Below, in pieces: positions 4,585-56,058 of a stretch of DNA of 64,000 nucleotides. Source of the stretch: an uncultured Verrucomicrobiae bacterium (GTDB lineage: Bacteria; Verrucomicrobiota; Verrucomicrobiia; Limisphaerales; JAFGQR01); assembly GCA_963788655.1 (NCBI GenBank), contig CAWBHS010000099.1:64001-128000 (forward strand). Direction: 5' to 3'. The notes under the pieces are model-generated. The model saw only the letters and a list, made by a program, of their open reading frames with translations. It ran no database searches and was not told the DNA's origin. Both the position numbers and the translations under genes were made by a program. Position 1 is the first letter of the stretch. The number at the start of each line of letters is the position of its first letter.

Positions 4585-4632
4585 TTCGGCCTTCGGGTTT
4601 CGGGTTTCTTTCGGATCTCGGACTTCGGATTC
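4585..4632. repeat. Degenerate short tandem repeat (TTCGG-based, ~7-8 nt period)
   Basis: ttcggcc ttcgggt ttcgggt ttct ttcggat ctcggac ttcggat. A complementary-type CCGAA run occurs at ~45256-45300. Confidence 0.55.
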
Positions 4633-5711
4633 TATTTCTTGGCGATTGGCGCCTTGGCTTCTACCCACCGGTCGGTGGCTCCCAACAGGACTTGGCGCAA
4701 TCGTGCCTGCACCCCGGTGATCAGGTCACTCGCTTCGGTTACCGTCAAGTTTTCCAGCATGGCGATTTCATCCGCTTCGAAGCCCTCCAAAAAGTGCAAC
4801 TCGAACACGGCGCGCTCTTTGACTGGCCACGAGGCGGTTACTTCGTGCAGGTAATGGACCAAGTCGTGTTCCATGGCAATGGCATCAGGACTCTCCGTTC
4901 GGCGGTCGGCCACCAGATCGGACAATCGCGCTGTCGTCGGTTCAAGGTTTTCCTCGATAATTCCCAACGGATTCTCCGCGTCGTATCCTTCCACGATCTC
5001 GGCCTCGTCGGCAACCGGTTGGGTTTCGTCCAACGGCACCGATTCCTGGCCTTCCACGCGCAATTGGCGGTATCGGCGCGCCAATTCCTGGCGCAGGAGA
5101 TCAAAGAGCCACAGCCGGTAACTCAACTCCGGCGGTTTGGCTTCCGGATCGGCCAAAGCTTGGCGCACCACTTCGTCAACCGCCGCCTCAGCCGTGATGG
5201 CGCCTTTGGGAACCAGACCGGAAAGATGCGCTCGGGAAAGTTGCCGCTGCACATGGTACAGCAACCGGCCATAGTACCGCTGAATCATCGTCGCCAGCGT
5301 ATCCGCGAGCGACTGGGGGCCTTCGGGATGCGGTTCAGCGGCAAACCGAAACGCGTTGTCCACCGGCACCAGCTCCCGCCGCGCCGCAGGCTTCCAATCC
5401 TGTTCGCGGCGCAACTCCGCTTTCAAGCTCCCCAACTCCCGCAGGAGCGCCGCCACCGCCTTGTCAAACGCGGTGATGGGATCCACCGCGGCCTTGTGAG
5501 TGTGCAGGATGTTTGAAGGTAGGCGTAACGTCAGGGCTACGGTGAAATGCTGCCGTTTGGGATGCCGTTCCAGGCTGACCAATAAGTGGACGGCATCCGG
5601 CGGAAAGTGCTGGAGATGCGTCTCCAATTTGGAAATCTTCTGGTGGATTTTCGACAGCAGTTGTTGGCGGGGACTAACACGTTTCGTGATCAGGTTCCAA
5701 GAGAGCGTCAT
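4632..5711 (-). CDS. HPF/RaiA ribosome-associated domain fused to sigma70 (ECF-like region 2/4) domains
   Basis: N-terminal ~105 aa show an HPF/S30AE pattern (KIHQKISKLETHL...HLLVSLE...FTVALTLRLPSNILH...DPITAFDKAVAALLREL). The C-terminus resembles sigma region 4 (PVKERAVFELHFLEGFEADEIAMLENLT...ARLRQ). Confidence 0.75.
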   Translation of the reverse strand: MTLSWNLITKRVSPRQQLLSKIHQKISKLETHLQHFPPDAVHLLVSLERHPKRQHFTVALTLRLPSNILHTHKAAVDPITAFDKAVAALLRELGSLKAELRREQDWKPAARRELVPVDNAFRFAAEPHPEGPQSLADTLATMIQRYYGRLLYHVQRQLSRAHLSGLVPKGAITAEAAVDEVVRQALADPEAKPPELSYRLWLFDLLRQELARRYRQLRVEGQESVPLDETQPVADEAEIVEGYDAENPLGIIEENLEPTTARLSDLVADRRTESPDAIAMEHDLVHYLHEVTASWPVKERAVFELHFLEGFEADEIAMLENLTVTEASDLITGVQARLRQVLLGATDRWVEAKAPIAKK

Positions 5712-6070
5712 AATTTCAATATCACCTTTGCTCGATCCATTTTGCCCGGAGCCCCAGGGTCCGGCACGGCTTCAGGGTGCAACCGAACACCAGCCTCAAT
5801 TTACCCCCGGACCGGTCGGTGTCGTCGGCCCGGCGCTTCGATTGGCAGCCCATTACTCGTCGCATCCTGCTCAGAACGTTCACCAACTATTCGCGATTGT
5901 CCACGATGGATTGAGTGGAAGCCGGTTCCAGACTTCCGACTGAGGTTGTCGCGAAGGTTGCCCGGCTTGGTGGGATTGTGCCGTCAAACAATCGTCAATT
6001 TTTCTGAAGTCCCCAATCGGGTGCTGCCGGCAAGCAGCCGGACGCACGTGGGAATGGGCAACGGTAAATC

Positions 6071-6216
6071 GCGCCAGCGTTTGGAGCGCGTGGAGCTTGC
6101 TCCCGCTTTCATTGGACGAAGGTGGACCGCAATGAACAGAATCGTTTGCAGGCATCTGGCGGACCTTTTCTCTTCGAAAGCGCCGGCAAGCCGGACGCAC
6201 TCCAAACGCTGCGCGA
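6071..6216. repeat. REP-like inverted doublet (GCGTTTGGAG-type)
   Basis: cgccagcgtttggagcgcgtggagcttgctcccgctttc is paired with the inverted copy gaaagcgccggcaagccggacgcactccaaacgctgcgcg. Confidence 0.65.
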
Positions 6217-6330
6217 GGTGCGGAAACCAACGTGATACGTTCCCCGATACACTCACCGCCTGCCCGTAGAAACGAAGGCGATGAGTGCGCGCGAATATTT
6301 ACCCTCAGTTCGAACGCCAATTGCACGTTC

Positions 6331-6362
6331 GATCTGCCGGCAGGATGCTGGCAGCACGCTGT
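6331..6362. repeat. REP-like palindrome, GTGCTGCCGGC family (right half)
   Basis: gatctgccggcaggatgctggcagcacgct. The same motif occurs at ~11143, 11340, 32148-32391, 34348, 34863 and 35958. Confidence 0.7.
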
Positions 6363-6380
6363 CAGGCCTGCATTTTCCCG

Positions 6381-9300
6381 CTAAAATTCGTAGGCGAACG
6401 AGAGGCCGAGGGTGATGCCCTTGGTGTAAGCGGCATACGTGGCGGAGCCGTTCTTGCCGTAGGTGATTTCGTGTTTCGGATCCAGGAGATTCTTGGCGGA
6501 AAACTTCAACTTCATGTTTCGCCCGAGGCGTTGGGAGATGATGAAGTCCAGGCCGGGAGCCGGTTGCTCGTAGAGGTCCGGGCTGTTTTGGGAGGTAATG
6601 ACCAGCCGCGGCCCGGAGATATTAAACAGGAGCGACGCACTGGTGCCGCTACGCGGATTGTCGTAGCTCAAATCCACATTGGCGATGTAGGGAGATTGGT
6701 CCTCCAACGGGCGGGTGGTGTCATCGATGCGAAATTTGCGCAACGAGTTTTGCTCGTCATCCGGAATGTCTTCCTCCGATTCAATCAGGGTCAGATTGCC
6801 GCCCAAGCTGAAATGACGCAAGCTGCGATGGAGGAATGCCAGTGACTTGCGGGCTTCAAACTCCACCCCATAGACGGTGCCCTTATCGCGGTTCACGTAT
6901 CCAACAAAGTCACCCACCTTGTCCGTGGCGCGCTTTTCAATCAGATCCTTCAGATCCTTGTAGAAAATGCCGACCGAGAATATTTCCCCAGGATTGGGAA
7001 ACCATTCCCAGCGCAAGTCGTAGTTTTTTATTTGCGAGATGCGGAGATCGGCGTTGCCCGTCAGAAACACGTCCAGCACGGGATCGTAACTCTGGATCGG
7101 AGCCAGTTCGCGGAACGAGGGCCGGGCGATGGTTTGGCCATAGTTAAGCCGCAGATTCATATTGGTGCGGAGCGTATAGACCAGCCCGACCGCGGGCAGC
7201 AAATGGGCCTGGTCGAGACTGGAAGGGACATCCTCTCCGCTGGTGCCATTCAAGCCCGGGATGGTACTGCTGGACACCATGTCAATTTGGGTGGTTTCGT
7301 AGCGTGCTCCACCAATGAAACGCAGTCTCCGGCCCACGGGAAGATCCGTCATCAGGTAACCCGCCGTGATGGAGCGATCCCCGCTATAGCGATTGTCGAA
7401 GGGAGCATCCAAATAGGTGTTCCAATCAAACGCATAGGTGGTATTCCGGCTGGTCACGTTGGTCGTGACGGAAGCGATGCCCAAATTGGCGGGGGTCAGA
7501 TACTCGTTCGGATCCGGGTTCGCCAACTTGCTGTCGGGCGATTTATACTGATAGAAACGCTCTTTGAAGTTACGGGTGGATTGGCTGTCAAAGTAACCAA
7601 ACTTGATCTCGCCAGGATTCCAGGACAAGGGACTGAACGGCACCGCCAAGTCGAATTTCAGGTTCAGATTGTTTTCATCCAGGTTACGAAAGAAGCGGCG
7701 GGGAAATTGAGGATCGAGGTTGGCGTCGCCAAAGTTGCCCGAGCGCGCGGCGTAAAAACGCACGTCGGGCTCATCCTGGGTGGTATCGGTCAGGGTGGCC
7801 AGCCAATTGAATTTGACGTTCCTGAAGGGACGGAGTCAGGTCAAACACGTGGCCGCCTTTCAATTGGAACATAGTGAGGTTCCGTTCGATCCACTGCAAC
7901 CGGTCCTCGACCAACTGGTTGCCACCAATCGGATCTCCGGCCGTATGGTCGAAGCCCTGGCGCATGCGGGAACTATCCTCGGCAAATTGATTGTAAAGGA
8001 AGTTGAACCCAATCTCGTGATCATCACTGAGTTGGTAGGCCAGACTGACGGAGCCCGACCAGTTGATCGTCTCCTTGGATTTGGCCTCGGTGTATCCTTT
8101 GATTTGCTCCAGGTCTCCCGGTTCTTTGCTGAAATCGTATTTGTACCGACCGACCTCGCCATTGTCGTAGAACGAATACGAGTGGTTGTAAGGCAGATTG
8201 AAAAAGATGCCCACGGGCCGGCTGAACAGCAGCGCGGTGTCTCCGCCGGACAAAGAAAAGTTATGATTCAGCGGCGACATCGTGGTCGTGGGGCCCAAGG
8301 CCGCCGGACCCAGGATCTTGGTCAAGCGGTCGTTCGCATAATTGTCCTCGAGCAGTCGGGTGCCCTGGGCGGGGTTGGACGTTGTAATCCGAACGGTCTG
8401 CCGGCCGAGGGGAAACCCGATGCGTTTCTCCGCCTCCAGTTCGGGCGGCAATTGTCGGGTGCCATCGTCCATTCCCAGCCAATCGGTGCCCCCGCCCGGA
8501 TAGGTGAGGAAGTTCTTGTTCAGGCTGGCTTGGGTATTATACGAGCCTCCCACCTCGAGGCCAAAGAAGGGCTTTTCGGGAAACGACTTGGTGATGATGT
8601 TGATGTTGCCACCGGTGAAACTGCCCGGTTGATCGGGAGTGAACGTTTTGGTGACTGCCACCCGGTCGATGATCTTGGCGGGAAACATGTCCAGCGACGC
8701 CGAACGCCGGTACGGGTCCGAGGACGGCAGTTCGGCTCCGTTGAGCGTGGCCGCGCTGTAACGGTCGGTCAATCCGCGGATCACCGCATAGCCCTCACTG
8801 GACACCGCGGCGCCGGAGACTTTGCTGACAATCGCCGCGGCATCGGACACGCCCGATTTAGAAATCTGCTCGGAGCTTACCGCTTCCACGCCAGCCGCGG
8901 ACTTGGATCGTTCTTGATATACGGCGGAGATGGTGCTGGGCGGCGGTTTGAAGATGGAGAGCTTCGGCGGCGGAGGGGCGGCGCGCCGGGTGGCTCGTTG
9001 TTCCGTGGTTGGTTTCTTCTCCTGGGCTTCCCCCGACCCGCCTTTGGACTTGCCCCCGGTCTGGCTGCGGGTGTCAGTGAAAAAGGTCTGGCCCACAGCG
9101 GCCGGCGCGTCGGCCGCCACGGCCCGGCGGGTACCGCTGCTGGCTCGCGGGGTGAGGCTTTTGGGCAGTTGGGAACTGGGGGGCGGCGGCGGTGGCGGGC
9201 GCTCCGGTTTCCTGGTGGTTGCCTCTTCAACACGGCGTTTCTTCTCTGAACGTATAAACTTCAGGTAGCGATCCAAAAGTTCCTTACCTTTTTCCGTATG

Positions 9301-9399
9301 CGCCGCCCAGTATAGGACCCCGGCCACCAGAATTACATGAGCCACGATGGAAATGATGATTCCGGTGCGGTCCTTCTTGGATTTCGTCTTACGAGGCAT
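6381..9399 (-). CDS. TonB-dependent outer-membrane receptor with an N-terminal TonB-like anchor and Pro-rich linker (~1005 aa); +1 frameshift at ~7821-7830 as sequenced
   Basis: Plug motifs (VIRGLTDRYSAATLNGAELPS, LDMFPAKIIDRVAVTKTFTPD, GGNINIITKS) lie in 7771..9399. Barrel motifs (TIARPSFRELAP, GNADLRISQIKNYDLRWEWF, KFSAKNLLD, terminal LSFAYEF) lie in 6381..7763. Removing one base near 7821-7830 gives continuous ...LTPSLQ-NVKFNWLATLTDTTQDEPDVRFY. Confidence 0.88.
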
Positions 9400-9492
9400 T
9401 AAAGCTCCAGATTAGAGGGGCATCTGTCCGATTCGGGAACGGCCAGCATTTCAGTCGGTGGCAAGGCGGGACCGGCATTGGCCCGCCGCGCA

Positions 9493-9912
9493 TCATCGCA
9501 AGGCTCCTCCCGTATCGGTGGCCAAACCGACTTTGTTGATGTTGGCCGAAATCAGCACGTCGAGCACATCCATGATCCGCTGGTAGTTGATGGCGCGGTC
9601 TCCGGCCACCACCACATTCAGATCTTCATCTTGCTTGCGGAACTCGACGAGGGTGCGCAGGAGTTGGTCCAGATTCATTTCCACGCCGTTCAGGAAGATC
9701 TTCCCCTGGTTATCGACCGAGACATAGTTCGCTTTCTTGGTCGGTTCTTCCTTCGGATTGGGGGTAGCGGAGGGAAGGCTGATGTTCACTTCATTCACGG
9801 GGGGCGCCGTCGTGATAATGAAAATGACGAGCAACACAAACGCCAGGTCGAGCAACGGCGTGATGTTCAGCTCGTGCATCGTCCCATGTTTGGAGGCGGA
9901 ATACTTTTTCAT
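9493..9912 (-). CDS. exbD: Biopolymer transport protein ExbD/TolR
   Basis: ELNITPLLDLAFVLLVIFIIT transmembrane motif with the conserved Asp; C-terminal VVVAGDRAINYQRIMDVLD. Confidence 0.92.
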   Translation of the reverse strand: MKKYSASKHGTMHELNITPLLDLAFVLLVIFIITTAPPVNEVNISLPSATPNPKEEPTKKANYVSVDNQGKIFLNGVEMNLDQLLRTLVEFRKQDEDLNVVVAGDRAINYQRIMDVLDVLISANINKVGLATDTGGALR

Positions 9913-9945
9913 AAGCCGGAAAGCAAATCGGGAGCCGGGTGGACC

Positions 9946-10821
9946 TCAGGCGCTGGCAAACGACGATTCGGTTTGGCCCTCCGCCCGCATCTTCTTGAGC
10001 GCGTCGGCAATCTCATCGGCAATCGGGCGATGGTCCACATAGCCGTGTTCGATCGCGGTGGCGTATTCGGCGGTGAAATTGTCCAGTTCCTGGGTGATGG
10101 CGCGGATGGTGGTAATCATGTAGTTATAAGCGAACATGGCGGGGATGGCGACAAACAGGCCGGTGACGGTGGCCAGCAACGCGGCCGCCACGCCCGGCGC
10201 CATGGCCGCCAGGCTGGCCGCCTGCACTTGGGCAATGCCGGAAAAGGTTTCCATGACGCCCCAAACGGTGCCCAGCAGCCCGATGAACGGCCCGCCGGCC
10301 ACAGCGGTGGACAGAATGATCATGCTTTTTTCCAACGAAATGGATTGGGCGCTCACCGCGCGTTCCAGGGCCACCCGAACCGATTCGAAGGAGGCCCCGC
10401 TGATCTTGACGGTGTTGGCTCGCGCAAAGTAATCCGTCTCCGCATGCTTGGCGAGGTCGTCCGGATTCTCGGATTTCACCGCGTCCACCTGGCTCACAAT
10501 CACCGGATTGTTTTTCAGATGGTAGGCCAATTCCTCCGCCCCGGTGAAGTACACTTCGTAAGCCGGTGCCCCGACGAACTCCTGCTCCTTGTTATACAGC
10601 TCCATGGGTTCACGCGTGGCCCGGTAGGCACTGAAAAATTTCCGGGCCATGGTGCTGGCCTTGATCAACTGCCGGCCTTTGCTGATCATCACCGTCCAAC
10701 TGAACAGGGAGAGGAAGATCAGCATGACAATGGTCATTTTGCCTTCGGTGGTCAGCTTGTCCACCGCGAAGGAGACGGCGTTCGCAAACATCGGGATCAG
10801 GTCGTGCGCTTCCATAATCAT
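9946..10821 (-). CDS. exbB: MotA/TolQ/ExbB proton channel protein
   Basis: LSTAVAGGPFIGLLGTVWGVMETF and APGVAAALLATVTGLFVAIPAMFAYN motifs; directly upstream of exbD. Confidence 0.92.
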   Translation of the reverse strand: MIMEAHDLIPMFANAVSFAVDKLTTEGKMTIVMLIFLSLFSWTVMISKGRQLIKASTMARKFFSAYRATREPMELYNKEQEFVGAPAYEVYFTGAEELAYHLKNNPVIVSQVDAVKSENPDDLAKHAETDYFARANTVKISGASFESVRVALERAVSAQSISLEKSMIILSTAVAGGPFIGLLGTVWGVMETFSGIAQVQAASLAAMAPGVAAALLATVTGLFVAIPAMFAYNYMITTIRAITQELDNFTAEYATAIEHGYVDHRPIADEIADALKKMRAEGQTESSFASA

Positions 10822-11140
10822 TAATCAGAGGTCACAATTCATTCGGTTCCGGTTTCTGGCCACGCGCACGAACCACCACGCTTGCCCGGGGGGCTTGCGG
10901 CTCGGTCCAAAATTGCGGTGTCCAACACATCGTGAAATTTGAATCCAACTTAAGGATGAGCTGTGGCAAACCCATGGCAGTCCCGTTACTTTTCTGTCAC
11001 GACGAATTGGACGATGGGACGGCCGATATTTGGTATTTAATGCCATCCTTGGCAACACGTTGCCAAGGTGCTACCGCAGGCGTTGGGACGTAGCTTAAGA
11101 CGCTAGCGCTGGCGCCGGCGCGATAGCGTCTTGGAGTGCG

Positions 11141-11370
11141 GCAACGTGCTGCCGGCATCTTGCCGGCAGTTTGGAACGGCGGCTTCAAATAATGACCAAT
11201 GCCCAATGCCCATCACTCCGGCATCCGCCTTTTGATTTCGGTAGGGTCATTGCGGACTTGGCCATTCTCTGGGACTTGGCCATTGGTCAGTGGCACCTCG
11301 GGCGCGCGCATTAGTTCGAGACTTGCTCTTGCACACGCTCTGCCGGCGGGACGCCGGCAGCACGTTGCCG
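11141..11370. repeat. Composite repeat: GTGCTGCCGGC REP-like ends enclosing AATGACC/GGTCATT heptamer runs
   Basis: caacgtgctgccggcatcttgccggcag at ~11142 and tgccggcgggacgccggcagcacgttg at ~11341, with aatgaccaatgccc ... ggccattggtcag between them. Confidence 0.65.
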
Positions 11371-11388
11371 GTCCATACTACACTTCCT

Positions 11389-12249
11389 CTAGTTTGCCGG
11401 AGAAGCCGGCTCGTCGCCCACCGCACAGGGATTGGCGCGGTTGCCCAACCGTTTCCGCCATTCGCTGGGGCTGGTGCCGAACTGCTTTTTGAAGGTGGTG
11501 TTGAAGATGCCGGGATGCCGGTAGCCAACCGCCAACGCGACCGTGGCGATCTTCTCACTGGTTTCCGCCAACATCTGTTTGGCCTTGATCATGCGGATTT
11601 CCGCCTGTTTGGCGCGGAAAGACACGCCGACATTCTGAATGAACAACCGATTGAAGTGCCGCGGGCCACAGTTGCAACGGGCCGCCAATTCGGTGACGGA
11701 ACATTCCAAGATTTCTGCCTCGGGCAGTTGCTGGAGGAGCAGCCGGATACGTTTGTTGGCCGGCATGAACGTTTTGCCGGGCGTGCGCGTCTGCCGGCAT
11801 TCGCGGTCGAAGAATAACGCGGCGATCTGGAGCATCAGACATCGGGCCAGCAGGCCCTGACGTTGTGCCACCTGGGCCTGCAAGCGGAGAAAAGTGTCGG
11901 CGAGCGGATCCCCGGGGCGGAAGCGGCGCGCAACGGGCTTCTTCCGTGAGGGTAACAATTCCAGTTGCCGCAATTCGTCCAGCGTCAGCAGGCCCGGCAA
12001 TAACTCGGGACAAAATAGAAAGAAGCTTAAGGTCGCGTCCCCCAGTTGGCTGGCACGAAATGTCCCGGGCCGGTGCGGTACTACGATCAAGGCATCTCCC
12101 TCATCCAACTCGATCACTTCCCCCGCTCTCAACCAATAGCCGCGACCGGTGCTCAGCCGCAGGAAGCACCAGCACGCAAACTCCGCCTTCCATTCGCCCG
12201 AAGGCGGGAGGTTCTCTTCATACAATGAGAGATGGCTTTGACGATTCAC
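11389..12249 (-). CDS. AraC-family transcriptional regulator (cupin-like N-terminus)
   Basis: C-terminal SVTELAARCNCGPRHFNRLF...KIATVALAVGYRHPGIFNTTFKKQFGTSPSEWR. Start uncertain: GTG at 12249 chosen, ORF is open to 12342. Confidence 0.85.
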   Translation of the reverse strand: MNRQSHLSLYEENLPPSGEWKAEFACWCFLRLSTGRGYWLRAGEVIELDEGDALIVVPHRPGTFRASQLGDATLSFFLFCPELLPGLLTLDELRQLELLPSRKKPVARRFRPGDPLADTFLRLQAQVAQRQGLLARCLMLQIAALFFDRECRQTRTPGKTFMPANKRIRLLLQQLPEAEILECSVTELAARCNCGPRHFNRLFIQNVGVSFRAKQAEIRMIKAKQMLAETSEKIATVALAVGYRHPGIFNTTFKKQFGTSPSEWRKRLGNRANPCAVGDEPASPAN

Positions 12250-12450
12250 TTTCTTTAGAACCCTGCGAATTTGGCATGGGCAGGTTACACTGCAAGGGCA
12301 GCCCGGCGACATTTCGGCAACAAGCTGGTGACGAAGAGTCATCAGCCGGCCGGCGCGGTTGGCGGTCAGGTTATGAAATAGATGAGGATACGTAATCGGA
12401 CACGGAAATTGGAGTGCAAGCTCAGCGATTGGCCGTGAGGCGGCATCGAT

Positions 12451-12468
12451 TCGTCATCGGGCTGTAAC
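12451..12468 (+). promoter_or_regulatory. Possible Pho-box-like direct repeat pair
   Basis: TCGTCAT (12451) and CTGTAAC (12462), 11 bp apart. Confidence 0.35.
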
Positions 12469-12656
12469 ACCGTTTCTGAGTCGTAGGTCAGGAGCAGCGG
12501 CCCAGCGTCGGCGATCGATCCCGGTAGCTTTCAAGGCGCACAAGACCTTGCCTGACAAACGTCTGATGCGGACGGCCCGCCGCCCCAGGCCGTCGTCACC
12601 GCTGACTGCTTCGCGCCAATACCGGGCCGCTTGCGTCCCAGCCTCCAGCGACGAGA

Positions 12657-12696
12657 TTGTCACCAATTTGTCACCTAATTGACCTTTACGTGTAAC
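12657..12696 (+). promoter_or_regulatory. Pho-box-like array upstream of the porin/pst cluster
   Basis: TTGTCAC (12657), TTGTCAC (12668), TTGACCT (12679), GTGTAAC (12690): exact 11-bp period, resembling the PhoB half-site CTGTCAT. Confidence 0.7.
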
Positions 12697-12742
12697 TTAC
12701 GTTCCCTATGGTGTCACCGCGTAACTAATCAATCCTAATACT

Positions 12743-14146
12743 ATGAAGAACACAAAATTCACTTGGGCGGCGCTGGCCGCCGGATCGCTCGCGGCCTTGG
12801 GCAGTGTGACCACGGCATCCGCACAATCATCGGACACCTTGATCGACGTGTTGGTGGACAAAGGGGTGCTCACACTGGATGAAGCCAAACAACTGCGGGC
12901 GGAAGCGGATAAGGATTTTACGCGGGCGTACGCCGCCAAGAGCGGCATGCCCGAATGGGTCACGGCCTTGAAATTCAGCGGCGATTTCCGGGGCCGTTAC
13001 GATGGAATTTATGTGGACAACCCGGCCCAGATTGACCGCCCGCGCTGGCGCTACCGTTTGCGGTTCGGTTTCACCGCGCTGATGTTGGACAACCTGGAAG
13101 TCGGACTCCGGCTGGCTTCGGGGAACGATGATCCGATTTCCCGCAACACAACCCTCAGTGACAATGGCGCGCCCAAACCAATCGGCATCGACCTGGCCTA
13201 CGGGAAGTATTACCTGCTCAACCGACCGACGGTGGGCGGGTCCGTCACCTTCGGCAAGATGAAGAATCCGTTCCATTTTTCTTCGATGGTTTTTGACCAC
13301 GATTACACGCCGGAAGGTGGCGCCATGCAGTACCAGTTCAATTTGAACCAGGATCCGGTCAAAGCCCAAGTCCTCAAGTTGAATCTCGGCGCGTTTGTGC
13401 TGGATGAACTCAAGGCCAGCAGTAGTGACCCGTATCTGCTGGGGGCGCAATTGCGATGGGAAGGCAAATTTGGCGAGGAACTGAAGCCGACCGGGTGGAA
13501 TGTATCAGCGGGCGTGGCGTTTCTGACCATTCAGAATGCCAACCAATTGACCCGGAGCGCGGTGCCGAATGTTGACACCGGGAATACGCGGATCCCAACG
13601 ACCAAGCAAGTCGTGTCACTGGATCCTTCGGTCGGCGTGACCACCAACTCATTAACTTCCTACGAAACCCTGGCCAACAAATTCAATCCCATTGTCGCCG
13701 ATGCCTCGGTTGGTTACACGCTGGAAGACTTCTGGATGTATAACGCACCATTCCCGATTGTGGTCGGGGGCGAGTACATGTACAACCCGGCCGCCGGCAC
13801 GCGCAACACGGGCTGGAACGTCGGCGTCACGTTTGGCAAGGCGGGCAAAAGCCGGCGGTGGGAACTGTCCTACAATTACAAATATTTGGAAAGCGACGCC
13901 TGGTATGAGCAGTTTGTGGACTCGGACTTCGGCGCCTATTATGCGGGCACTTCGCTCAACGGAACCAAGGGCTATGGCGCCGGCACGAATGTGCGTGGCC
14001 ACGTGATCTCCCTCGCGTATTCTCCGTTCAACTCGCTGACCCTGGCCGCCACCGCCTTTGTCACCGAACTGATCGACAAGCCGGCCGTATCCCATAACAA
14101 CAGCGACACCTTGCGCGTGCAGGTGGATGCACAATGGAAGTTCTGA
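12743..14146 (+). CDS. Putative outer-membrane porin (Porin_5-like), probably phosphate-related
   Basis: Signal peptide; SDTLIDVLVDKGVLT coiled N-domain; LKFSGDFRGRYD, RWRYRLRFG; C-terminal RVQVDAQWKF beta-signal; located upstream of pstS. Confidence 0.8.
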   Translation: MKNTKFTWAALAAGSLAALGSVTTASAQSSDTLIDVLVDKGVLTLDEAKQLRAEADKDFTRAYAAKSGMPEWVTALKFSGDFRGRYDGIYVDNPAQIDRPRWRYRLRFGFTALMLDNLEVGLRLASGNDDPISRNTTLSDNGAPKPIGIDLAYGKYYLLNRPTVGGSVTFGKMKNPFHFSSMVFDHDYTPEGGAMQYQFNLNQDPVKAQVLKLNLGAFVLDELKASSSDPYLLGAQLRWEGKFGEELKPTGWNVSAGVAFLTIQNANQLTRSAVPNVDTGNTRIPTTKQVVSLDPSVGVTTNSLTSYETLANKFNPIVADASVGYTLEDFWMYNAPFPIVVGGEYMYNPAAGTRNTGWNVGVTFGKAGKSRRWELSYNYKYLESDAWYEQFVDSDFGAYYAGTSLNGTKGYGAGTNVRGHVISLAYSPFNSLTLAATAFVTELIDKPAVSHNNSDTLRVQVDAQWKF

Positions 14147-14209
14147 TTTCCGCGATCTGGTTGCCAAATTAGCGGAGCGCGCGACCTCCTGCGACCTCCG
14201 TTGCCGTTG

Positions 14210-14249
14210 CAAGCCGGGACTGGTTTAGTCCCGGCTTGTTTGTTTTTTT
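14210..14249 (+). terminator. Rho-independent terminator after the porin gene
   Basis: Perfect 12-bp stem caagccgggact-ggttt-agtcccggcttg followed by tttgttttttt. Confidence 0.85.
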
Positions 14250-14400
14250 GAGGAGGGCATTGGAGGCTTGGTCCAATTGTTCCAGTGTTCCCTCACCGGC
14301 GCGGCTTTGATTGGAGGGCATCGCCGAACCGAGCCACCAACGTGGGCGGGCGCAATGACCTTTTTGGGAACCAAGGCGCGGATGCTTGTTTCCGATCGTG

Positions 14401-14435
14401 CCGTCAAACATTGGTCAAGTTCACACAATCGTCAC
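14401..14435 (+). promoter_or_regulatory. Possible Pho-box-like repeats upstream of pstS
   Basis: GTCA at 14403 and 14414, and TTCA/GTCA at 14420 and 14431; each pair is 11 bp apart. Confidence 0.45.
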
Positions 14436-14501
14436 CTGCCCGCCATGGGGAGTTTTCATTCGCGTACATCATTAGGAGTAACAAATCGCAGCGAACAATA
14501 A

Positions 14502-15365
14502 ATGCAACACACTATGAGAACAATACAACACATCTTGCTGCTGGCCGCCCTGACCGCTGGAGTAGGTACGGCAGCCGCCGCGGACAGTATTACCATCAAA
14601 GGTTCGGACACCATTGTCATCCTCGCGCAGAAATGGGCGGAAGCGTACATGAAGCTACACCCGGACGTGAAGATCGAAGTCACGGGCGGGGGGAGCGGTA
14701 TTGGCCTGGCCGCGCTGCAAAACCAGAGCACGGACATCGCCGATGCCTCGCGCCGGATGAAACCCAAGGAGATCGCCAATTGCGTGAAAGTGTTTGGGCG
14801 CCGGCCCACCGAGTACAAGGTCTGTCTCGACGGACTTTCCGTTTATGTGAATGAACACAATCCGCTCAACGAAGTGACGATCTTCCAATTGGAACGGGTG
14901 TTCACCGGCAAATACAAAAACTGGAAGGAATTGGGCGGCGCCGATGAGCGCATCAATGTGTATGGCCGGGAAAACAGTTCGGGCACCTACGAGTTCTTCA
15001 AGGAACACGTGCTGGAAGGCCAGGATTACACCGCACGCACCCAAACCATGCCAGGCACCGCCGCCGTGATTCAGGCGGTGGCCAAGGACAAGAACGGCAT
15101 CGGCTACGGCGGGGTCGCTTACGGCAAAGGCACCAAGATTCTCAAAGTCAAACAGTATGACAATTCTCCCGCCATTGCGCCCACCGAGGAAACGGTGCTG
15201 AACAAGACCTACCCCATTTGGCGCTACTGCTACAATTACGTGAATCCGGCACTCGATCGCGGGATTGTGGCCGATTATCTGCGTTGGATTCGTACTGACG
15301 AAGGCCAAAAGATCGTCAAAGAGGTCGGCTATTTCCCGTTGCCGCCTCACATGCGGATCAAGTAA
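14502..15365 (+). CDS. pstS: Phosphate ABC transporter substrate-binding protein
   Basis: Signal peptide; ITIKGSDT, VTGGGSGIG, DIADASR, GRENSSGTYEFF motifs. Alternative ATG at 14514. Confidence 0.93.
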   Translation: MQHTMRTIQHILLLAALTAGVGTAAAADSITIKGSDTIVILAQKWAEAYMKLHPDVKIEVTGGGSGIGLAALQNQSTDIADASRRMKPKEIANCVKVFGRRPTEYKVCLDGLSVYVNEHNPLNEVTIFQLERVFTGKYKNWKELGGADERINVYGRENSSGTYEFFKEHVLEGQDYTARTQTMPGTAAVIQAVAKDKNGIGYGGVAYGKGTKILKVKQYDNSPAIAPTEETVLNKTYPIWRYCYNYVNPALDRGIVADYLRWIRTDEGQKIVKEVGYFPLPPHMRIK

Positions 15366-15476
15366 TCGTAATGGAGGACAATGGGCCCCGGCTGCTACGC
15401 GGCCACTTCCGGAGCGAAAGCGAATTCCAAAACCTGGCCTGTTCCCGCGCCCGCAATTAACCCAATCGTGAATCCT

Positions 15477-16655
15477 ATGTCCATTGCTGCCCAATCACCC
15501 AAACGCACCGCCGACTGGAGCGCCATTCAACGCGGCGTCAAATCCCGGCCGGGTGAATGGCTGACGGAGAAGGGCATCCTGCTGGTGGCGCTCACCGCCA
15601 TCCTGATGGTGTTCCTGATCTTCCTGTTCGTCGGCCGGGAAGCACTGCCGGTGGCGTTGAGGAAAATGAACACCGCGCACAATCAGGAAATCATTCCGGT
15701 GGCGGATATGGACCAAGTGGCGCCGGAGAAGTTGTGCGCCTATCTGGATTTGAAACCGCAAGAACTCGCCTCCATGGATCCACAAACCTTGCGCATTCTC
15801 ATGGAGGTCAAGGCCGAGGAATTGCAAGCCCGACCGGACGACAAGGATGCCCGGCTCAATACTGCCCGTTGGCAGTATATCCTTCATCCGCACCAGTGGA
15901 CCGGTTACGATAAACCCGAATACATCTGGCAACCGGTTTCCAAGATTCCCAAGTTCAACATTATCCCGCTCATCATCGGCAGCCTCAAAGCCACGCTCGT
16001 GGCGCTGTTTTTTGCGGTGCCGTTGTCCCTCGGGGCCGCGATCTATGTCTCGCAATTGGCCCCTCCGAAATGGAAAGAATACTTGAAGCCCGCCATCGAA
16101 ATGCTCTCCGGCATTCCGTCGGTAGTGCTGGGTTTCTTTGCGCTGATCGTCATGGCCTCGGTCCTCCAGGCCATCTTCGGTTCCCAGTATCGGCTGAATG
16201 CCCTGGTCGCCGGTATTGCCCTGGGCTTCGCCGTCATTCCCGTGGTGTTTTCCATCTCCGAGGATGCCCTGACCAGTGTGCCGCGTAGCTACGTGCATGC
16301 GGCCCTGGCGCTGGGTTCCTCCCGGTGGCATACGGCTTGGCGCATCGTGTTGCCCGCGGCCATGCCGGGGGTGTTCGCCGCCGTAGTGCTGGGCTTCGGA
16401 CGCGCCATTGGAGAAACGATGATCGTGTTGATGGCCAGCGGCAATGCCAGCATCGTTTCCTGGAACATCTTTGAATCAACCCGGACCATGACCGCCACCA
16501 TCGCGGCGGAGTTGGCCGAAACCGTGGTGGGCGGCACGCATTACCGCATGCTCTTCCTGATCGGCGCGCTGTTGTTCATCGTGACGTTCCTTGCGAACAT
16601 GATCGGGGATCTCGTCATGCACCGGTTGAAGAGCAGACTGGAGGGCGCCAAGTGA
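15477..16655 (+). CDS. pstC: Phosphate ABC transporter permease PstC
   Basis: KPAIEMLSGIPSVVLGFF, GFGRAIGETMIVLMASGN, TMTATIAAELAE. Start uncertain (ORF open from 15381). Confidence 0.93.
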   Translation: MSIAAQSPKRTADWSAIQRGVKSRPGEWLTEKGILLVALTAILMVFLIFLFVGREALPVALRKMNTAHNQEIIPVADMDQVAPEKLCAYLDLKPQELASMDPQTLRILMEVKAEELQARPDDKDARLNTARWQYILHPHQWTGYDKPEYIWQPVSKIPKFNIIPLIIGSLKATLVALFFAVPLSLGAAIYVSQLAPPKWKEYLKPAIEMLSGIPSVVLGFFALIVMASVLQAIFGSQYRLNALVAGIALGFAVIPVVFSISEDALTSVPRSYVHAALALGSSRWHTAWRIVLPAAMPGVFAAVVLGFGRAIGETMIVLMASGNASIVSWNIFESTRTMTATIAAELAETVVGGTHYRMLFLIGALLFIVTFLANMIGDLVMHRLKSRLEGAK

Positions 16656-17677
16656 GCAAAGTTAAAATCCGTCCTGAATCGTTCGACACCCGGCTCCACA
16701 AGCGGCGCCGCTGGCAACGGATGCTGCTTAAGGATGAGCATCTGTCGTGGGACATCCGCCGTTCCGGGGCGAATATGCCCTCCACATTCTTCACCGGTCT
16801 GACGGGCGCGGCCACCGCGCTTATTCTGAGCATCCTGGCGTTTATCATCATCAACGTTGTCTGGAACGGTCTGGATGGACTTTCCTGGCATTTCATCTTC
16901 TCCGGTTCGGCCAACATGTTTGACGTAAACCAGGCCGGCGTGTTCCCGATGATCTTCGGCACGGCCGCCCGCGTAATTCTCATGACCATTTTCGTCATTC
17001 CCATCGGGGTCATCACCGCCATTTACCTGACCGAATACGCCGCCACCACCTCACCGATCACCCGCATTATTCGTGGCGCAGTCAACAACCTGGCCGGTGT
17101 GCCGTCCATCGTGTTCGGTTTGTTCGGCCTGGGTTTCTTCATCAGTTTCGTCGGGGGCGGCCTGGACCAACTGTTTTCGCCGGACAATCCGGAGCCCGTA
17201 TGGGGCAAGCCGGCCATCATCTGGGCCTCGCTGACGATGGCGGTCATGACGCTGCCGGTGGTGATTGTAGCCACCGAAGAATCGCTGCGGGCGATTGCGC
17301 CGGGATTGCGCGAAGGCAGTCTGGCCTTGGGTGCCACGAAACTCCAAACGATCCGGCGCGTGGTCCTGCCGCAAGCGCTGCCCGGAATTCTGACCGGCGG
17401 CATTCTGGCGGTGAGCCGTGCGGCCGGTGAAGTGGCGCCCATTCTGTTCACCGGCGCTGCCTATTACATGGCCCACCTGCCCAAGTCGCTCACCGACCAG
17501 TTCATGGATTTGGGCTACCATGTGTTTGTGCTTTCCACCCAATCGCCCAACATTGATCAAACGCGTCCCATCCTCTACGCCACCGTGGTCGTGCTGCTGC
17601 TGCTGACCTTTGCCTTGAACGTGGTCGCCATTTTCGTGCGGGCGCAAGTGCGCCGCCGCCTGCGGGCCATGCAATAA
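16652..17677 (+). CDS. pstA: Phosphate ABC transporter permease PstA
   Basis: [49 protein letters not shown] overlap with the pstC stop. Confidence 0.93.
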
Positions 17678-17679
17678 TT

Positions 17680-18525
17680 GTGAACCTCAATTCTATGACG
17701 GCAACCCCAACCCATCTCGTTAAATTGGATTCCAAATTGACGGTCGCTCCGGCGGCGGACACCTCCGCCCACGCGCCCTTGATCGACGTGAAGAACCTCT
17801 CCTTGTGGTACGGAAAGGACCAGGCGCTCAAGGACATTACCTTGTTCATCCGGGAACACGTCGTCAGCGCTTTTATCGGTCCGTCCGGCTGCGGCAAATC
17901 CACGTTTCTGCGCTGCTTCAACCGGATGAACGACCTGATCGACCACGTGCGGATGGATGGCGACATCCACATTGCCAGCCAGAACATCTACGGCCACGAA
18001 GTGGATGTCATCGAACTACGGAAGCGCATTGGCATGGTGTTCCAGAAATCCAATCCGTTCCCGAAATCCATCTACGACAACATCGCCTATGCGCTGCGGC
18101 TCCATGGCGTCAAGGCCAAGTCCGAACTGGACGGGCTCATCGAGCAAAGTCTCCGCGACGCCGCCCTGTGGGATGAAGTCAAGGACCGCCTCCAAGCCAG
18201 TGCCATGGGATTATCCGGCGGTCAGCAACAACGCCTGTGCATCGCGCGGGCGATTGCCATCCGCCCGGAAATCATTCTGATGGACGAACCCGCTTCGGCG
18301 CTCGACCCGGTGGCCACCGCGCGGATCGAAGATCTCATCCTGGAATTGAAAAAGGAATTCACCATCGTGATTGTGACCCACAATATGCAACAGGCGGCGC
18401 GCATCTCGGATTTTACCGCCTTCTTTTACCTGGGCGAATTGGTCGAATACGACACCACCGCAAAGATCTTTACCAATCCGGCCAAGAAACAAACGGAAGA
18501 CTATGTTACGGGACGATTTGGATGA
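17680..18525 (+). CDS. pstB: Phosphate ABC transporter ATP-binding protein
   Basis: [43 protein letters not shown], terminal [10 protein letters not shown]. Confidence 0.96.
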
Positions 18526-18540
18526 GCAACGGGGGAATGG

Positions 18541-18620
18541 GATGCCGGATGCCAGATACCTGACGCTGGGCACCAGATACTGAATACTGGCTACTGATTA
18601 CTGATTACTGGCTACCGAAT
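18541..18620. repeat. Heptamer tandem repeats (GATGCCR / ACTGATT-like) between pstB and phoU
   Basis: gatgccg gatgcca ... actgaat actggct actgatt actgatt actggct accgaat. Confidence 0.6.
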
Positions 18621-18681
18621 GTGCGATGCGCTATAGATGATTTGTGATGGCTAATGACTAACCTCTCACCTTGCTACTGTT

Positions 18682-51623: not shown

Positions 51624-52305
51624 ATGATATTTGGAGAATATTGGTTTTGGTTTGTTATTCCCGGCTTGATTCTGGGTCTGGCCGCCCAATTCAAGTTGAT
51701 GTCCACGTACAAGCATTACGTGCGTGTCCCGACAGAAAGTGGGATTAGCGGCGCGGAAGCGGCACGGGAAATTCTGGATCGTGCCGGATTGCACAATGTG
51801 CCCGTTAATGAGATACGGGGGCAACTGACGGATCATTACGACCCGATCAAGAAGGCCCTGTTCCTTTCGTCGGAGAACTTTCATGGACGTTCGTTGGCTG
51901 CGGTTGGCGTTTCGGCGCACGAAGCCGGGACATGCCTTGCAGCACAAGGCGGCGTACGCGCCATTGAACTGGCGCATGGCGATGGTGCCGATCACGCAAT
52001 TCGCCAGTTTTGCCTGGTCGGGGATTCTGCTGCTCGGTTTGTTTACCGGGATGTTTTACCAATTCCTGGGTATTGGGGTGGCCATCTTTGCCGTATTGAC
52101 GGTGTTTCAACTGATCACCCTGCCCGTCGAGTTCAACGCCAGCAGCCGGGCCAAACAACAACTGGTGCGCCTGGGATTGGTGTCTGGACGAGAATCACGC
52201 GGGGTCAGCAAAGTGCTCAATGCCGCAGCCATGACTTATGTGGCCGCGATGGTGACCACGATCCTGCAGTTGCTGTATTTGATTCTGCTCTCGCGAAATC
52301 GGTGA
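51624..52305 (+). CDS. YugP-like membrane neutral zinc metallopeptidase; +1 frameshift at 51927-51929 as sequenced
   Basis: SGAEAAREIL, GQLTDHYDP, AAVGVSAHEAG|HALQH (HExxH is restored by deleting one G), LITLPVEFNASSRA, VLNAAAMTYVAA. Confidence 0.88.
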
Positions 52306-52357
52306 TCCGTCAGCAGAGCGTTGTCGAAGCCGCCGGCCTTCGCTACGTTGTCGGTGA

Positions 52358-53716
52358 ATGAATTCTGTCACGTGGCGTTGGCTTTTTCGAACACCGGTTG
52401 GTTGCTGTCGAGTTAGTTTGATCGGCGTCTGGCTGCTGGTGGTATTGGCCGGCGAAGCACCCGGCGCCGTCCCTCAGGTGGTCATTATCACTCCGCACGT
52501 CGAAGCCATTCGCGTGGAGTTCGGACGCGGATTTGCCGACTGGCACCAGCGGTACTTCGGAAAACCGGCCCATGTCGAATGGCGCTACCTCGGCGGCACC
52601 TCGGATTCGCTGCGGTTCGTGCGGTCGGAATTCAAATCCAAACCCGCCGGCATCGGCATCGATTGTTTTTTTGGCGGTGGCCAGGAACCGTTCCTCATTT
52701 TGGCGGAAGACGAACTGGCGCTGCGTTACCAGCCGCCGCCGGAAATCATCGACGGCATTCCGCAGAACATCAACGGCGTGGATGTTTATGATCCCAATTA
52801 CACGTGGTTTGGGACGGTGATTTCGAGCTTCGGTATCTTGCAGAACGTCCGGGTGCAAGCCGTCATGCAGTTGCCGTTTGTTCATCGTTGGAGCGAGCTG
52901 ACGCAACCGGCCCTCGCGGGATGGGTGGGCGCCGGCGATCCTCGCCGCAGTGGCACCATGGCGGTCATGTTCGAGGCCTTCCTCCAGTATTACGGTTGGG
53001 AACGCGGTTGGCAGGTATTGACGCAAATTGCCGGTAACGTGCGTCAGTTTGACCGCGCCTCCAGCACCACCGCCAAAGACGTGACCCTGGGAGAAACGGC
53101 GTACGGTTTCGCCATCGATTTCTATGGGATCAGTCAGGTGGCTTACGCCGGGCGGACCAATTTGACGTTTGCCCTCGCCCAGGATTTCACGGCGCTGAAT
53201 CCGGATTGCATTGCCATTCTCAAGGGCGCGCCGAATTTGAAAACGGCCCAGCGGTTCGTGAATTTCGTATTATCGGAGGAAGGACAAAAGCTTTGGTTCC
53301 TGCCGCAGGGACATCCGGAAGGACCGAAGACCCATTCGATCGAACGAATGCCGGTGCGTCCCGATCTTTACCAACGCTATCGCACCGAGAGCAACATCGA
53401 GTTCTCGCCTTTCGACTTGAAGCAGACGTTCCGTTACAACGCCGAGTTGAGCAAGGCGCGTCGCAGCGTGGTGGCGGACTTGGTGGGAGCGTTGTTCGTG
53501 GATACTCACACGGAACTGCAAGCCGCCTGGCGCCGTCTGATTCAACGCCAACTTCCGGAAGCTGACTTGGTCGAATTCGGCCGGGTGCCGGTGACTGAGA
53601 AAGAAGCCCTGACCCTGGCCACCGGCGCGTGGAAAGACCCTGCGCTGCGCAACGCGAAACGAATCGAATGGCAGAGTGGGGCGCAGGATAAATACCGCAA
53701 ACTGGCAGCGCCGTGA
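52358..53716 (+). CDS. ABC transporter extracellular solute-binding protein (Fe3+/thiamine/phosphonate-like class)
   Basis: Signal peptide; IITPH, IDCFFGGG, GDPRRSGT, IAILKGAPNLKTAQRFVNFVLSEEGQ. Confidence 0.8.
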   Translation: MNSVTWRWLFRTPVGCCRVSLIGVWLLVVLAGEAPGAVPQVVIITPHVEAIRVEFGRGFADWHQRYFGKPAHVEWRYLGGTSDSLRFVRSEFKSKPAGIGIDCFFGGGQEPFLILAEDELALRYQPPPEIIDGIPQNINGVDVYDPNYTWFGTVISSFGILQNVRVQAVMQLPFVHRWSELTQPALAGWVGAGDPRRSGTMAVMFEAFLQYYGWERGWQVLTQIAGNVRQFDRASSTTAKDVTLGETAYGFAIDFYGISQVAYAGRTNLTFALAQDFTALNPDCIAILKGAPNLKTAQRFVNFVLSEEGQKLWFLPQGHPEGPKTHSIERMPVRPDLYQRYRTESNIEFSPFDLKQTFRYNAELSKARRSVVADLVGALFVDTHTELQAAWRRLIQRQLPEADLVEFGRVPVTEKEALTLATGAWKDPALRNAKRIEWQSGAQDKYRKLAAP

Positions 53717-54844: not shown

Positions 54845-54996
54845 GCATTTAACTTGCGTTTAACCATTGATTCGCGTCGGCGAGAAACCGATAGGATGGA
54901 TGAAGTCGGTCGCCAGCAAGTCCTGGAGCGTTTGCTCACGGATTTAATTTGCTTGCGCATCAATGCCGGCGACGCCTAGGTACTGGGAAACAAAAT

Positions 54997-56044: not shown

Positions 56045-56058
56045 CTCTCTCCCGATTG

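Follow-up and report, generated by a model that had tools for sequence, protein, structure and literature searches.

A TonB/TolA-type anchor helix fused to an outer-membrane transporter behind exbB-exbD in Verrucomicrobiota: a candidate cis-linked Ton system

In the classical Ton system (ExbB-ExbD-TonB together with transporters such as FecA, BtuB and FhuA), the link between TonB and the Ton box of the transporter is transient and non-covalent; for this reason the mode of force transmission by the Ton motor is still under debate, as is the question whether a pull on the plug's N-terminus suffices for transport. This report concerns a three-gene operon on a 64,000-nucleotide (nt) stretch of DNA from an uncultured Verrucomicrobiae bacterium (GenBank assembly GCA_963788655.1, contig CAWBHS010000099.1, positions 64,001 to 128,000; hereafter the window, numbered from its first letter), in which exbB and exbD are followed by a gene that joins a TonB/TolA-type anchor helix and a linker to a TonB-dependent transporter (TBDT), and which may represent a cis-linked Ton system. 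The locus resembles the classical system in its exbB-exbD motor genes with the energiser in third place, in the single N-terminal helix with an S-x3-H face, in a Pro-rich periplasmic spacer of ~120 residues, and in the plug inside a 22-strand barrel. Unlike the classical system, the fused family has neither a TonB C-terminal domain (TonB_C) nor a Ton-box strand, its spacer is covalently joined to the plug, and there is one motor operon per transporter gene.

The nearest paralogues of the fused proteins are the CarboxypepD_reg-type (Oar/SusC-like) TBDTs of Verrucomicrobiota and Bacteroidota, with up to 58-65% identity in plug and barrel, a similar length of ~950-1000 amino acids (aa), and a plug that starts at about residue 120-170 in both groups; these classical paralogues have a cleavable-type signal peptide of their own, a CarboxypepD_reg domain and a YEVTAE-type strand, where the fused proteins have the anchor and the linker instead. 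Transducers of the STN type (FecA, FpvA) also have an N-terminal extension of the transporter that reaches across the periplasm to an inner-membrane partner, but theirs is a folded domain that touches an anti-sigma factor non-covalently, and they retain a normal signal peptide and the Ton box; no STN signalling domain was detected with Pfam in the window protein or in six family members. VirB10/TraF of type IV secretion, which has been called TonB-like in sensing energy, is the known example of a single chain in both membranes: it has an inner-membrane helix and, across a Pro-rich region, a C-terminal part that is inserted in the outer membrane. That outer-membrane part, however, is a helical antenna in a 14-mer and not a monomeric plugged beta-barrel, VirB10/TraF is not known to be coupled to ExbBD, and no sequence relation to the fused family was seen. 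TolA and the vWA 'force transducers', the latter being TonB/TolA-like proteins with a vWA C-terminal domain and genes beside motor genes, share with the fused proteins an SHLS-like TonB/TolA-type helix, a disordered or Pro-rich domain II of ~100 residues, an adjoining TolQR/ExbBD-type motor, and a C-terminal domain other than TonB_C; as described in the accessible part of PMC12204202, their C-terminal part is a soluble periplasmic target-binding domain, whereas that of the fused family is an integral outer-membrane barrel. A description of a TonB-anchor::transporter fusion was found neither in the open full-text literature, to which subscription journals do not belong, nor in the accessible portions of PMC12204202 (supplements aside) and the 2024 review PMC11658791. 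The fused family should therefore be filed as a variant, and not as an ordinary member, of the TBDTs or of the TonB transducers, because the defining feature fails on either side: the Ton box for the transporters and TonB_C for the transducers.

The genes exbB, exbD and the fused gene are consecutive on the minus strand (10821..9946, 9912..9493 and 9399..6381), and all features of the operon given below lie on that strand. Four open reading frames (ORFs) were called: an exbB/tolQ-type motor subunit (9946..10821, 291 aa; Pfam MotA_ExbB, 1.8e-29), an exbD/tolR-type motor subunit (9493..9912, 139 aa; Pfam ExbD, 8.1e-27), a 542-aa ORF that starts with MPRKTKSKKDRTGIIISIVAHVILVAGVLYW (7771..9399; Pfam Plug at aa 165-252, 1.4e-08), and a 460-aa ORF that ends with ...SFAYEF (6381..7763; Pfam TonB-dependent-receptor barrel, PF00593, 1.1e-31); the latter two are one gene of ~1000 aa with a single break in the barrel. 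These domain matches confirm the order that the first-pass annotation, made by a model from the sequence alone, had given for the operon. The start of the fused gene, the residues S17 and H21 in its helix, and the linker segments RPPPPPPPSS and AAPPPPKLSIFKPPPS also stand as first read. A GGAG is located 7 nt 5' of the ATG (9399), and there is no stop codon between residue 1 and the plug, into which the linker of ~120 aa runs directly, as had been described. Within aa 1-160 the sequence shows no second hydrophobic stretch and no Cys.

The fusion is not confined to the window. With aa 1-300 as query, 446 matches at E<=1e-3 were obtained among 8000 scored candidates longer than 950 aa, and all of the best 120 of these 446 relatives span the junction (120/120; 961-1008 aa; 93-100% of aa 1-300 covered) and contain the Plug domain. 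Homologues that align across the junction had been proposed earlier as a check on the fusion, and they are present throughout this set. Where these 120 listed matches bear a name, it reads only 'TonB-dependent receptor', from Verrucomicrobia/Verrucomicrobiota, with one labelled Paceibacterota. A basic tail and a helix with S/A-x3-H are found in 117 of the 120, and in the other three the gene call is cut at the N-terminus, with two of these starting at the His. When 1.84 billion representatives were searched exhaustively with phmmer, 4992 matches at E<=1e-3 were obtained; among the best 150 of these, ~12 full-length proteins aligned from residue 1-10 to ~300, and the rest matched with the plug only (query ~141-300), usually at target positions ~115-170. 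Such plug-only classical paralogues have an ordinary signal peptide, CarboxypepD_reg, and a YEVTAE-type strand before the plug.

The gene order is likewise conserved. Six loci (L001-L006), all from metagenome-assembled genomes or assemblies of Verrucomicrobiota, were returned when genome contigs were scanned with one protein query; exbB (291-324 aa) and exbD (136-139 aa) are positioned directly 5' of the fused gene and on the same strand in 6/6 of these loci, thus in 7/7 with the window. The fused ORF is intact in five of the six (996-1010 aa), and the sixth is ended by the contig edge. A stand-alone or TonB_C-bearing form of the N-terminal anchor-linker unit (N-module) was not found among proteins of 30-297 aa and 298-949 aa sharing aa 1-150; since these searches were word-seeded, this is weak evidence that such a form is absent. 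Besides the window's own ORF, the matches at these shorter lengths (3 + 2) comprised three fragments that continue into the plug and a fragment of 99 aa whose end lies in the linker. The fused proteins form a large Verrucomicrobiota family of probable outer-membrane nutrient transporters in which a TonB/TolA-type anchor and a linker appear to take the place of a signal peptide.

The frame break in the window copy was located by DNA alignment with two intact orthologues (a full comparison with L001; L004 around the break). Only one of the length differences is not divisible by 3, namely 10 extra nt at ~7844-7812 (7812..7844), and the other eight insertions or deletions relative to the L001 orthologue are all of 3 or 6 nt. 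Read codon by codon, nine of the 10 extra nt appear to form an in-frame insert (Asp-Leu-Thr), and the tenth to be a single additional base near 7812-7818; the position of ~7821-7830 that was first assigned to the frameshift is corrected accordingly, and its placement inside the barrel, ~1.1 kb from the junction, holds. The barrel is divided by the break into an N-terminal part (7816..8499), which is continuous with the plug in ORF 7771..9399, and a C-terminal part (6381..7815), which extends to the ...SFAYEF end and matches the Pfam barrel profile at positions 46-436 of 436. Either a sequencing error or real decay can account for the break. A second gene of the window, for a Zn_peptidase_2 (PF04298) protein at 51624-52361 (plus strand), is also split: ORF 51624..52361 covers profile positions 2-105, and ORF 51883..52305, which overlaps it, covers positions 96-217. 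Two such breaks within 64 kb point to indel errors in the assembly or to gene decay under way.

These breaks bear on whether the fusion itself is an artefact, i.e. a misassembly or deletion that joined a remnant of tonB to a receptor gene in one genome, in line with the frameshift. The broken frame of the window copy and the second split gene speak for it. However, the same junction is found in 120/120 of the matches listed, on many contigs, and in the five intact genes of the fetched loci, it is ~1.1 kb away from the break, and, relative to the L001 orthologue, every other difference in length is divisible by 3. The recurrence in the listed matches and in the five intact genes refutes the artefact for the architecture, and we give next to no credence to it overall.

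The fused protein starts with a cytoplasmic basic tail (aa 1-12, MPRKTKSKKDRT; 9364..9399) with the conserved residues K9-D10-R11-T12, followed by a transmembrane anchor of the TonB/TolA type (aa 13-34; 9298..9363), a 22-residue apolar helix with S17-x3-H21, as supported by alignment, profile score and an AlphaFold2 (AF2) helix. In an alignment of 122 full-length members (A3; the near-duplicates P0028, P0029 and P0100 and the truncated P0042, P0118 and P0120 were omitted), H21 is the sole invariant column before residue 165, and it is so too with the window protein as first row (123 sequences). In a set of 126 N-termini, the conserved residues were D10 (118), K9 (104), R11 (101), T12 (105), I16 (116) and T35 (111), and position 17 was occupied by Ser in 92/126 and by Ala in 34/126; these rows were picked by a regular expression that demands the His, so that a His count in them is circular, and the independent count is that of the 120 similarity matches, none of which is without the His where the position exists. 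The helix is preceded by a median of five Lys plus Arg, and its apolar run is 22 residues long in the median (interquartile range 22-22), as compared with 14.5 (12-17) in the signal peptides of 92 classical paralogues.

The helix was compared with the products of tonB, exbBD and tolQRA as annotated in E. coli K-12. The alignment with the TonB helix is free of gaps, with S16/H20 on S17/H21 and VVAGLLY on LVAGVLY. A profile hidden Markov model of family residues 1-36 scored 10.0 bits with E. coli TonB and 15.8 bits with TolA, versus -1.3, -2.5 and -1.9 bits with the short inner-membrane N-termini of ExbD, TolR and CydX; for TonB and TolA each, the real score was reached by 0/2000 full shuffles and by 1/2000 shuffles of the helix only (tails and composition kept), and 0/92 N-termini of the classical paralogues reached 10 bits (maximum 2.1). 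A language-model Atlas placed the N-module nearest to the clusters 1TM_TonB_rel, TonB_N, 1TM_TonB and TonB_C (scores 0.83-0.88), which is a lead only. No TonB family was found at E<=10 when seven N-modules were searched in Pfam, and a PDB profile search with N-modules gave only chance-level matches (E>=0.53); homology of the N-module to TonB is thus not claimable by standard searches. By alignment and family profile, however, the N-terminal helix appears to be TonB/TolA-type in character, and it is probably retained and not cleaved.

The first-pass annotation had seen no clear signal-peptidase site. This holds for A-x-A, which is absent; within the helix, however, V25-A26-G27|V28 conforms to a permissive -3/-1 pattern, and 77/122 proteins have such a pattern (IGG|V or VAG|V) inside theirs. 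V-A-G is found in E. coli TonB, too, at the corresponding position, and in 1988 Postle and Skare reportedly found TonB not to be cleaved. The -3/-1 rule used is simple and too permissive to decide cleavage, and therefore does not exclude it. The N-terminal helix could then be an unusual, cleaved signal peptide, the mature product being an outer-membrane transporter with a long disordered extension, in which the conserved motif at aa 87-113 (see below) would act as an extended 'Ton box' for capture in trans, either by a classical TonB or, without one, by the periplasmic ExbD dimer of the adjacent motor. Apart from the permissive site, this fits the conservation of the linker motif, which is similar to that of the plug (0.72 versus 0.76) in a region that AF2 predicts as disordered, as is expected of a partner-binding linear motif, and the failure of standard profile searches to tie the N-terminus to TonB. 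It is difficult to reconcile with an apolar run of 22 residues versus 14.5 in the real signal peptides of the nearest paralogues, with an invariant His and a conserved Asp in the N-region, both unexpected in a targeting peptide, with a positional likeness to the TonB/TolA anchors that exceeds composition, with the still apolar VLYWAA after the putative site, and with the V-A-G of TonB itself. We consider cleavage unlikely, though of the rival explanations it is the one to be taken most seriously.

The motor genes were compared with Ton and Tol models. In NCBIfam, the exbB-type protein scored 140 bits with the tolQ model versus 104 with exbB, and the exbD-type protein 95 bits with tolR versus 78 with exbD, all below the cut-offs. 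Residues equivalent to S34, W38 and P190 of E. coli ExbB do not vary among the window and the six loci, and those equivalent to L132 and the proton-binding D25 of ExbD are invariant in an alignment of E. coli, the window and three loci (L001-L003). According to the accessible part of PMC12215075, TonB S16/H20 touch ExbB S34/W38, and W38 contacts P190; according to that of PMC10907165, ExbD L132 is required for binding of the TonB D-box. Since these residues are generally conserved in such motors, they are consistent with docking rather than specific for it; we infer that the helix docks on ExbB. The motor may be of the Ton or of the Tol type, because the motor proteins score higher on tolQ/tolR, and the anchor higher on TolA, than on their Ton counterparts.

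The same scores would suit a different function, in which the protein is no nutrient importer but a motor-driven envelope tether with a logic similar to that of Tol-Pal, its barrel being an outer-membrane anchor that is pulled by a TolQR-like motor for envelope integrity or another surface process. TonB/TolA-like transducers with other C-terminal domains are known in the vWA family, at least from the part of PMC12204202 available, and the anchor's 15.8 bits on TolA exceed its 10.0 on TonB. However, the plug is the most conserved part of the protein (0.76), the nearest paralogues are ordinary CarboxypepD_reg-type transporters, no tolB or pal adjoins, phosphate-uptake genes recur nearby, and the N-module is grafted on several barrel lineages, which suits a generic energiser for various substrates. 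An envelope tether is therefore improbable in our view.

The plug domain comprises aa 156-300 (8500..8934), with Plug (PF07715) at aa 165-252 (35.6 bits; cut-off, 23.9), and the best NCBIfam match of the C-terminal barrel part is TIGR01782 (TonB-Xanth-Caul; 171 bits, below its cut-off). With the family alignment, AF2 modelled the intact orthologue P0001 with a mean predicted local distance difference test score (pLDDT) of 87.4 and a predicted TM-score (pTM) of 0.82, as helices at residues 12-34 and 36-59 and a short helix at 159-168, followed by a plug and a barrel of the 22-strand type. Foldseek retrieved solved TonB-dependent transporters with this model, best FecA (1kmp; E 2.7e-27; TM 0.76 on target). 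For aa 1-300 of the window protein, AF2 predicted helices at 11-34 (pLDDT 94-96) and 36-60, disorder at 61-156, and a helix at 157-166 that leads into the plug fold.

The fused proteins lack the classical features in front of the plug. In the preceding 22 aa they have a median of five Pro and a Ton-box-like strand in 0/123, versus a median of zero Pro and a strand in 23/39 of the classical paralogues (own regular expression for the strand; 39 of 98 paralogues matched the anchoring expression). CarboxypepD_reg was found by Pfam in 6/6 classical paralogues tested and in 0/6 fused proteins. By this comparison the Ton-box strand is lost in the fused proteins. TonB_C (PF03544), the globular domain that contacts its partner through strand addition, was found in none of the 139 window ORFs of at least 120 aa, the fused protein included, in agreement with the earlier statement that no TonB C-terminal domain is visible in the window. 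It was also found in none of the 148 ORFs of at least 130 aa that flank the operon in the six loci (159 ORFs less 11 antisense ORFs nested in long ORFs), so that the relatives, too, stand behind exbB-exbD without TonB_C among their flanking genes.

Anchor and plug are connected by a linker with a median of 120.5 residues between helix end and plug start (109-143; n=118 of 122) and 15% Pro, which is similar in length to the stretch between helix end and C-terminal domain in E. coli TonB. It begins with a juxtamembrane helix with a Lys-rich end (aa 35-60, 9220..9297; AF2), followed by a first Pro-rich spacer (aa 61-86, ERPPPPPPPSSQLPKSLTP; 9142..9219), a conserved linear motif (aa 87-113, SSGTRRAVAADAPAAVGQTFFTDTRSQ; 9061..9141), and a second, Gly/Ser/Pro-rich spacer (aa 114-155; 8935..9060) that ends at the place of the Ton box in the classical paralogues. 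AF2 gave no secondary structure for aa 61-156 of the window protein (pLDDT of 10-residue blocks 45-66, with a fall from 61 to 45 in the first spacer), and pLDDT was below 50 at residues 60-149 of P0001.

The motif reads G89-x-R-R-A-V-A-x-D-A-P-x3-G-x2-F-F-x-D-x-R (SGTRRAVAxDAPAAxGxxFFxDTR), and is conserved in the 126 rows with counts of 117 (G89), 118 (R91), 111 (R92), 115 (D97), 126 (A98), 125 (P99), 113 (G103), 122 (F106), 108 (F107) and 107 (R111), at a pLDDT of 33-53, i.e. disordered by AF2. Diverged forms (DAPP...FF..[DE].R) are kept in the distant members P0125-P0145, and no known motif matching aa 87-113 was found. By segment (P0001 numbering), the mean frequency of the top residue was 0.63 in the N-tail, 0.59 in the helix, 0.47 at residues 36-56, 0.38 in the first spacer, 0.72 in the motif, 0.32 in the second spacer, 0.76 in the plug and 0.58 in the barrel; hence, the N-tail and the helix are conserved to the level of the barrel. 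We propose the motif as a putative partner-binding site, and our guess is that it could serve as a handle for the ExbD dimer or as a gate.

A strongly conserved motif rich in small residues (AVAADAPAA), within an otherwise variable and disordered linker, could also mark a processing site: the fusion would then be made whole and split after export by cleavage within the linker, e.g. at or near the motif. A stub without a C-terminal binding domain could not hold the transporter, though, a conserved protease gene is found beside the operon in 0 of 7 loci, and a known processing-site feature was not identified; such splitting is improbable.

In trees of plug and barrel, the fused proteins do not form one clade. 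A FastTree analysis of 36 fused and 15 classical rows (71 rows picked, of which 20 without the anchor expression were dropped) contained four label changes, of which at least three are forced by starred branches; an IQ-TREE quick search (LG+G4) of 24 fused and 16 classical rows contained seven, of which at least five are forced, with support of 99 for the core fused clade and of 100 for the classical P0147 as sister to the fused P0070/P0078. Both trees were quick searches and are unrooted. P0070 shares 70-74% identity with the core members P0047 and P0026 in the N-module, but only 42% in plug and barrel, where its identity to the classical P0147 is 58%; the plug and barrel of P0078 have 65% identity to P0147 and 40-45% to the core. 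Judged from these label changes and pairwise identities, the anchor-linker unit is swapped with the classical N-terminus on related barrels, and is more constant than the barrels it sits on. This mosaic distribution suggests that the same barrels can take either a trans- or a cis-energised N-terminus.

The reading that we favour, as somewhat better than an even bet, is that of a Ton system linked in cis, with a covalent tether by which the motor would pull the plug. The third gene of the exbB-exbD operon would encode an uncleaved S-x3-H signal-anchor helix, a juxtamembrane helix, ~95 disordered Pro/Lys/Gly-rich residues with the strongly conserved motif among them, and a complete plug-barrel transporter; the helix would dock on the ExbB pentamer in the fashion of the TonB helix, and the proton-driven ExbB-ExbD motor would put the linker of ~120 residues under tension. 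Since linker and plug N-terminus form one covalent chain at the point where the Ton box is classically located, the pull would act on the plug directly to unfold or displace it, and both the TonB C-terminal domain and the Ton box would be dispensed with. A single chain probably bridges both membranes, with its barrel presumably in the outer and its N-terminus in the inner membrane. This is the simplest reading because the sole export signal is a helix of transmembrane length with a TonB/TolA face, a matching motor adjoins, the linker is as long as the spacer of TonB, and the Ton box is gone. The fusion proposed by the first-pass annotation is supported at the sequence level by the TonB/TolA-type anchor, the retained partner residues of the motor, and the missing Ton-box strand.

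A fuller version has about even chances of being correct: a self-contained, envelope-spanning import machine, in which one polypeptide is located in both membranes (its TonB/TolA-type helix in the ExbBD stator, its plugged barrel in the outer membrane), the plug is pulled by the covalent tether without TonB_C or Ton box, the N-module is a portable 'energiser cassette' on several barrels, exchanged with the N-terminus of signal peptide, CarboxypepD_reg and Ton box, and the linker motif is the handle or gate of the motor.

A number of points weigh against a pull in cis, in addition to the permissive sites inside the helix and the missing TonB matches in Pfam and PDB profiles. Conserved yet cleaved signal peptides exist, such as the extended signal-peptide region of autotransporters, so that conservation alone is no proof that the helix is retained. 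Of the SHLS face of TonB (S-x3-H-x6-L-x3-S) only S and H are kept, the L27 position being V/I/A and the S31 position A/L, and S17 itself is replaced by Ala in the 34 rows given above. In TonB/TolA transducers the motor box or D-box, which forms a strand soon after the helix, binds the ExbD/TolR dimer; a D-box-like strand is not predicted after the anchor, where AF2 gives the helix 36-60, and the conserved aa 87-113 offer candidate motifs further along. The TonB_C negatives cover the window and the six loci, and a classical tonB elsewhere in these genomes is possible. The window's own copy, frameshifted in the barrel, may be inactive or mis-sequenced. We know of no characterised precedent for an outer-membrane beta-barrel that is assembled with its N-terminus held in the inner membrane. 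Finally, a covalent tether removes the ligand-gated Ton-box step, and futile pulling would therefore need another control; the linker motif at aa 87-113 is a candidate for a control that replaces the ligand-gated exposure of the Ton box.

The neighbourhood of the operon contains phosphate-related genes. In the window these are located at 12743-19356 (plus strand) and encode a Porin_5 protein, a PstS-like PBP_like_2 protein, two permeases, an ABC ATPase and PhoU (pstSCAB-phoU); in the other loci, pstSCAB-phoU was found in L005 (1218-6894), CHAD-domain proteins in L003 (6503-7555) and L006 (6593-7660), an alkaline phosphatase in L004 (17664-18404), and a response regulator with a histidine kinase near the operon in L002. 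A link of the fused-transporter operon to the phosphate-starvation response is possible, as a lead only. No Rfam match at E<=1 was obtained in window positions 5600-12800, and thus no riboswitch hint to a substrate. An AraC-type regulator is encoded 5' of exbB on the minus strand (11389..12342; Pfam HTH_18, 1.4e-22), and an ORF of equal length and position was found in L001 only (1/6 loci). Promoter and terminator scans were at chance level (four promoter-like sites versus 2.8 expected; six terminator-like sites versus 8.6).

Directly 3' of the transporter gene, a 359-aa ORF (4632-5711, minus strand) has both an HPF/S30AE ribosome-hibernation domain (aa 9-99) and a part that resembles ECF sigma factors (aa 140-341). 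In two of the six loci (L002, 13080-16061; L006, 13085-16081), the fused gene is followed on the same strand by a gene for a ~995-aa protein with a signal-peptide-like start and no Pfam match, of which the window contains no counterpart. Elsewhere in the window, a 548-aa ORF (54949-56595, plus strand) carries Sigma70 regions 1.2, 2 and partial 3 (aa 97-248), without region 4, together with a phosphoribosyltransferase domain at aa 411-526, and may be a chimera caused by frameshift or deletion, or else an unusual fusion; an ORF of at least 1928 aa (58171-63957, minus strand) that runs past the end of the window contains many immunoglobulin I-set/Ig_3 repeats; and a 223-aa protein (21092-21763, plus strand) ends with a VPDSG-CTERM sorting motif (PF18205, 1.6e-09).

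For annotation, the family comprises hundreds of fused proteins that are now named only 'TonB-dependent receptor'. If the cis-linked arrangement is true, energiser and transporter would be united in one chain with a dedicated, adjoining motor, at a fixed 1:1 stoichiometry and with a defined tether length, and His21, the linker motif and the length of the linker would offer a direct genetic handle on the pulling model. For outer-membrane biogenesis, a new question would then arise, namely how BAM folds a 22-strand barrel whose N-terminus is kept in the inner membrane.

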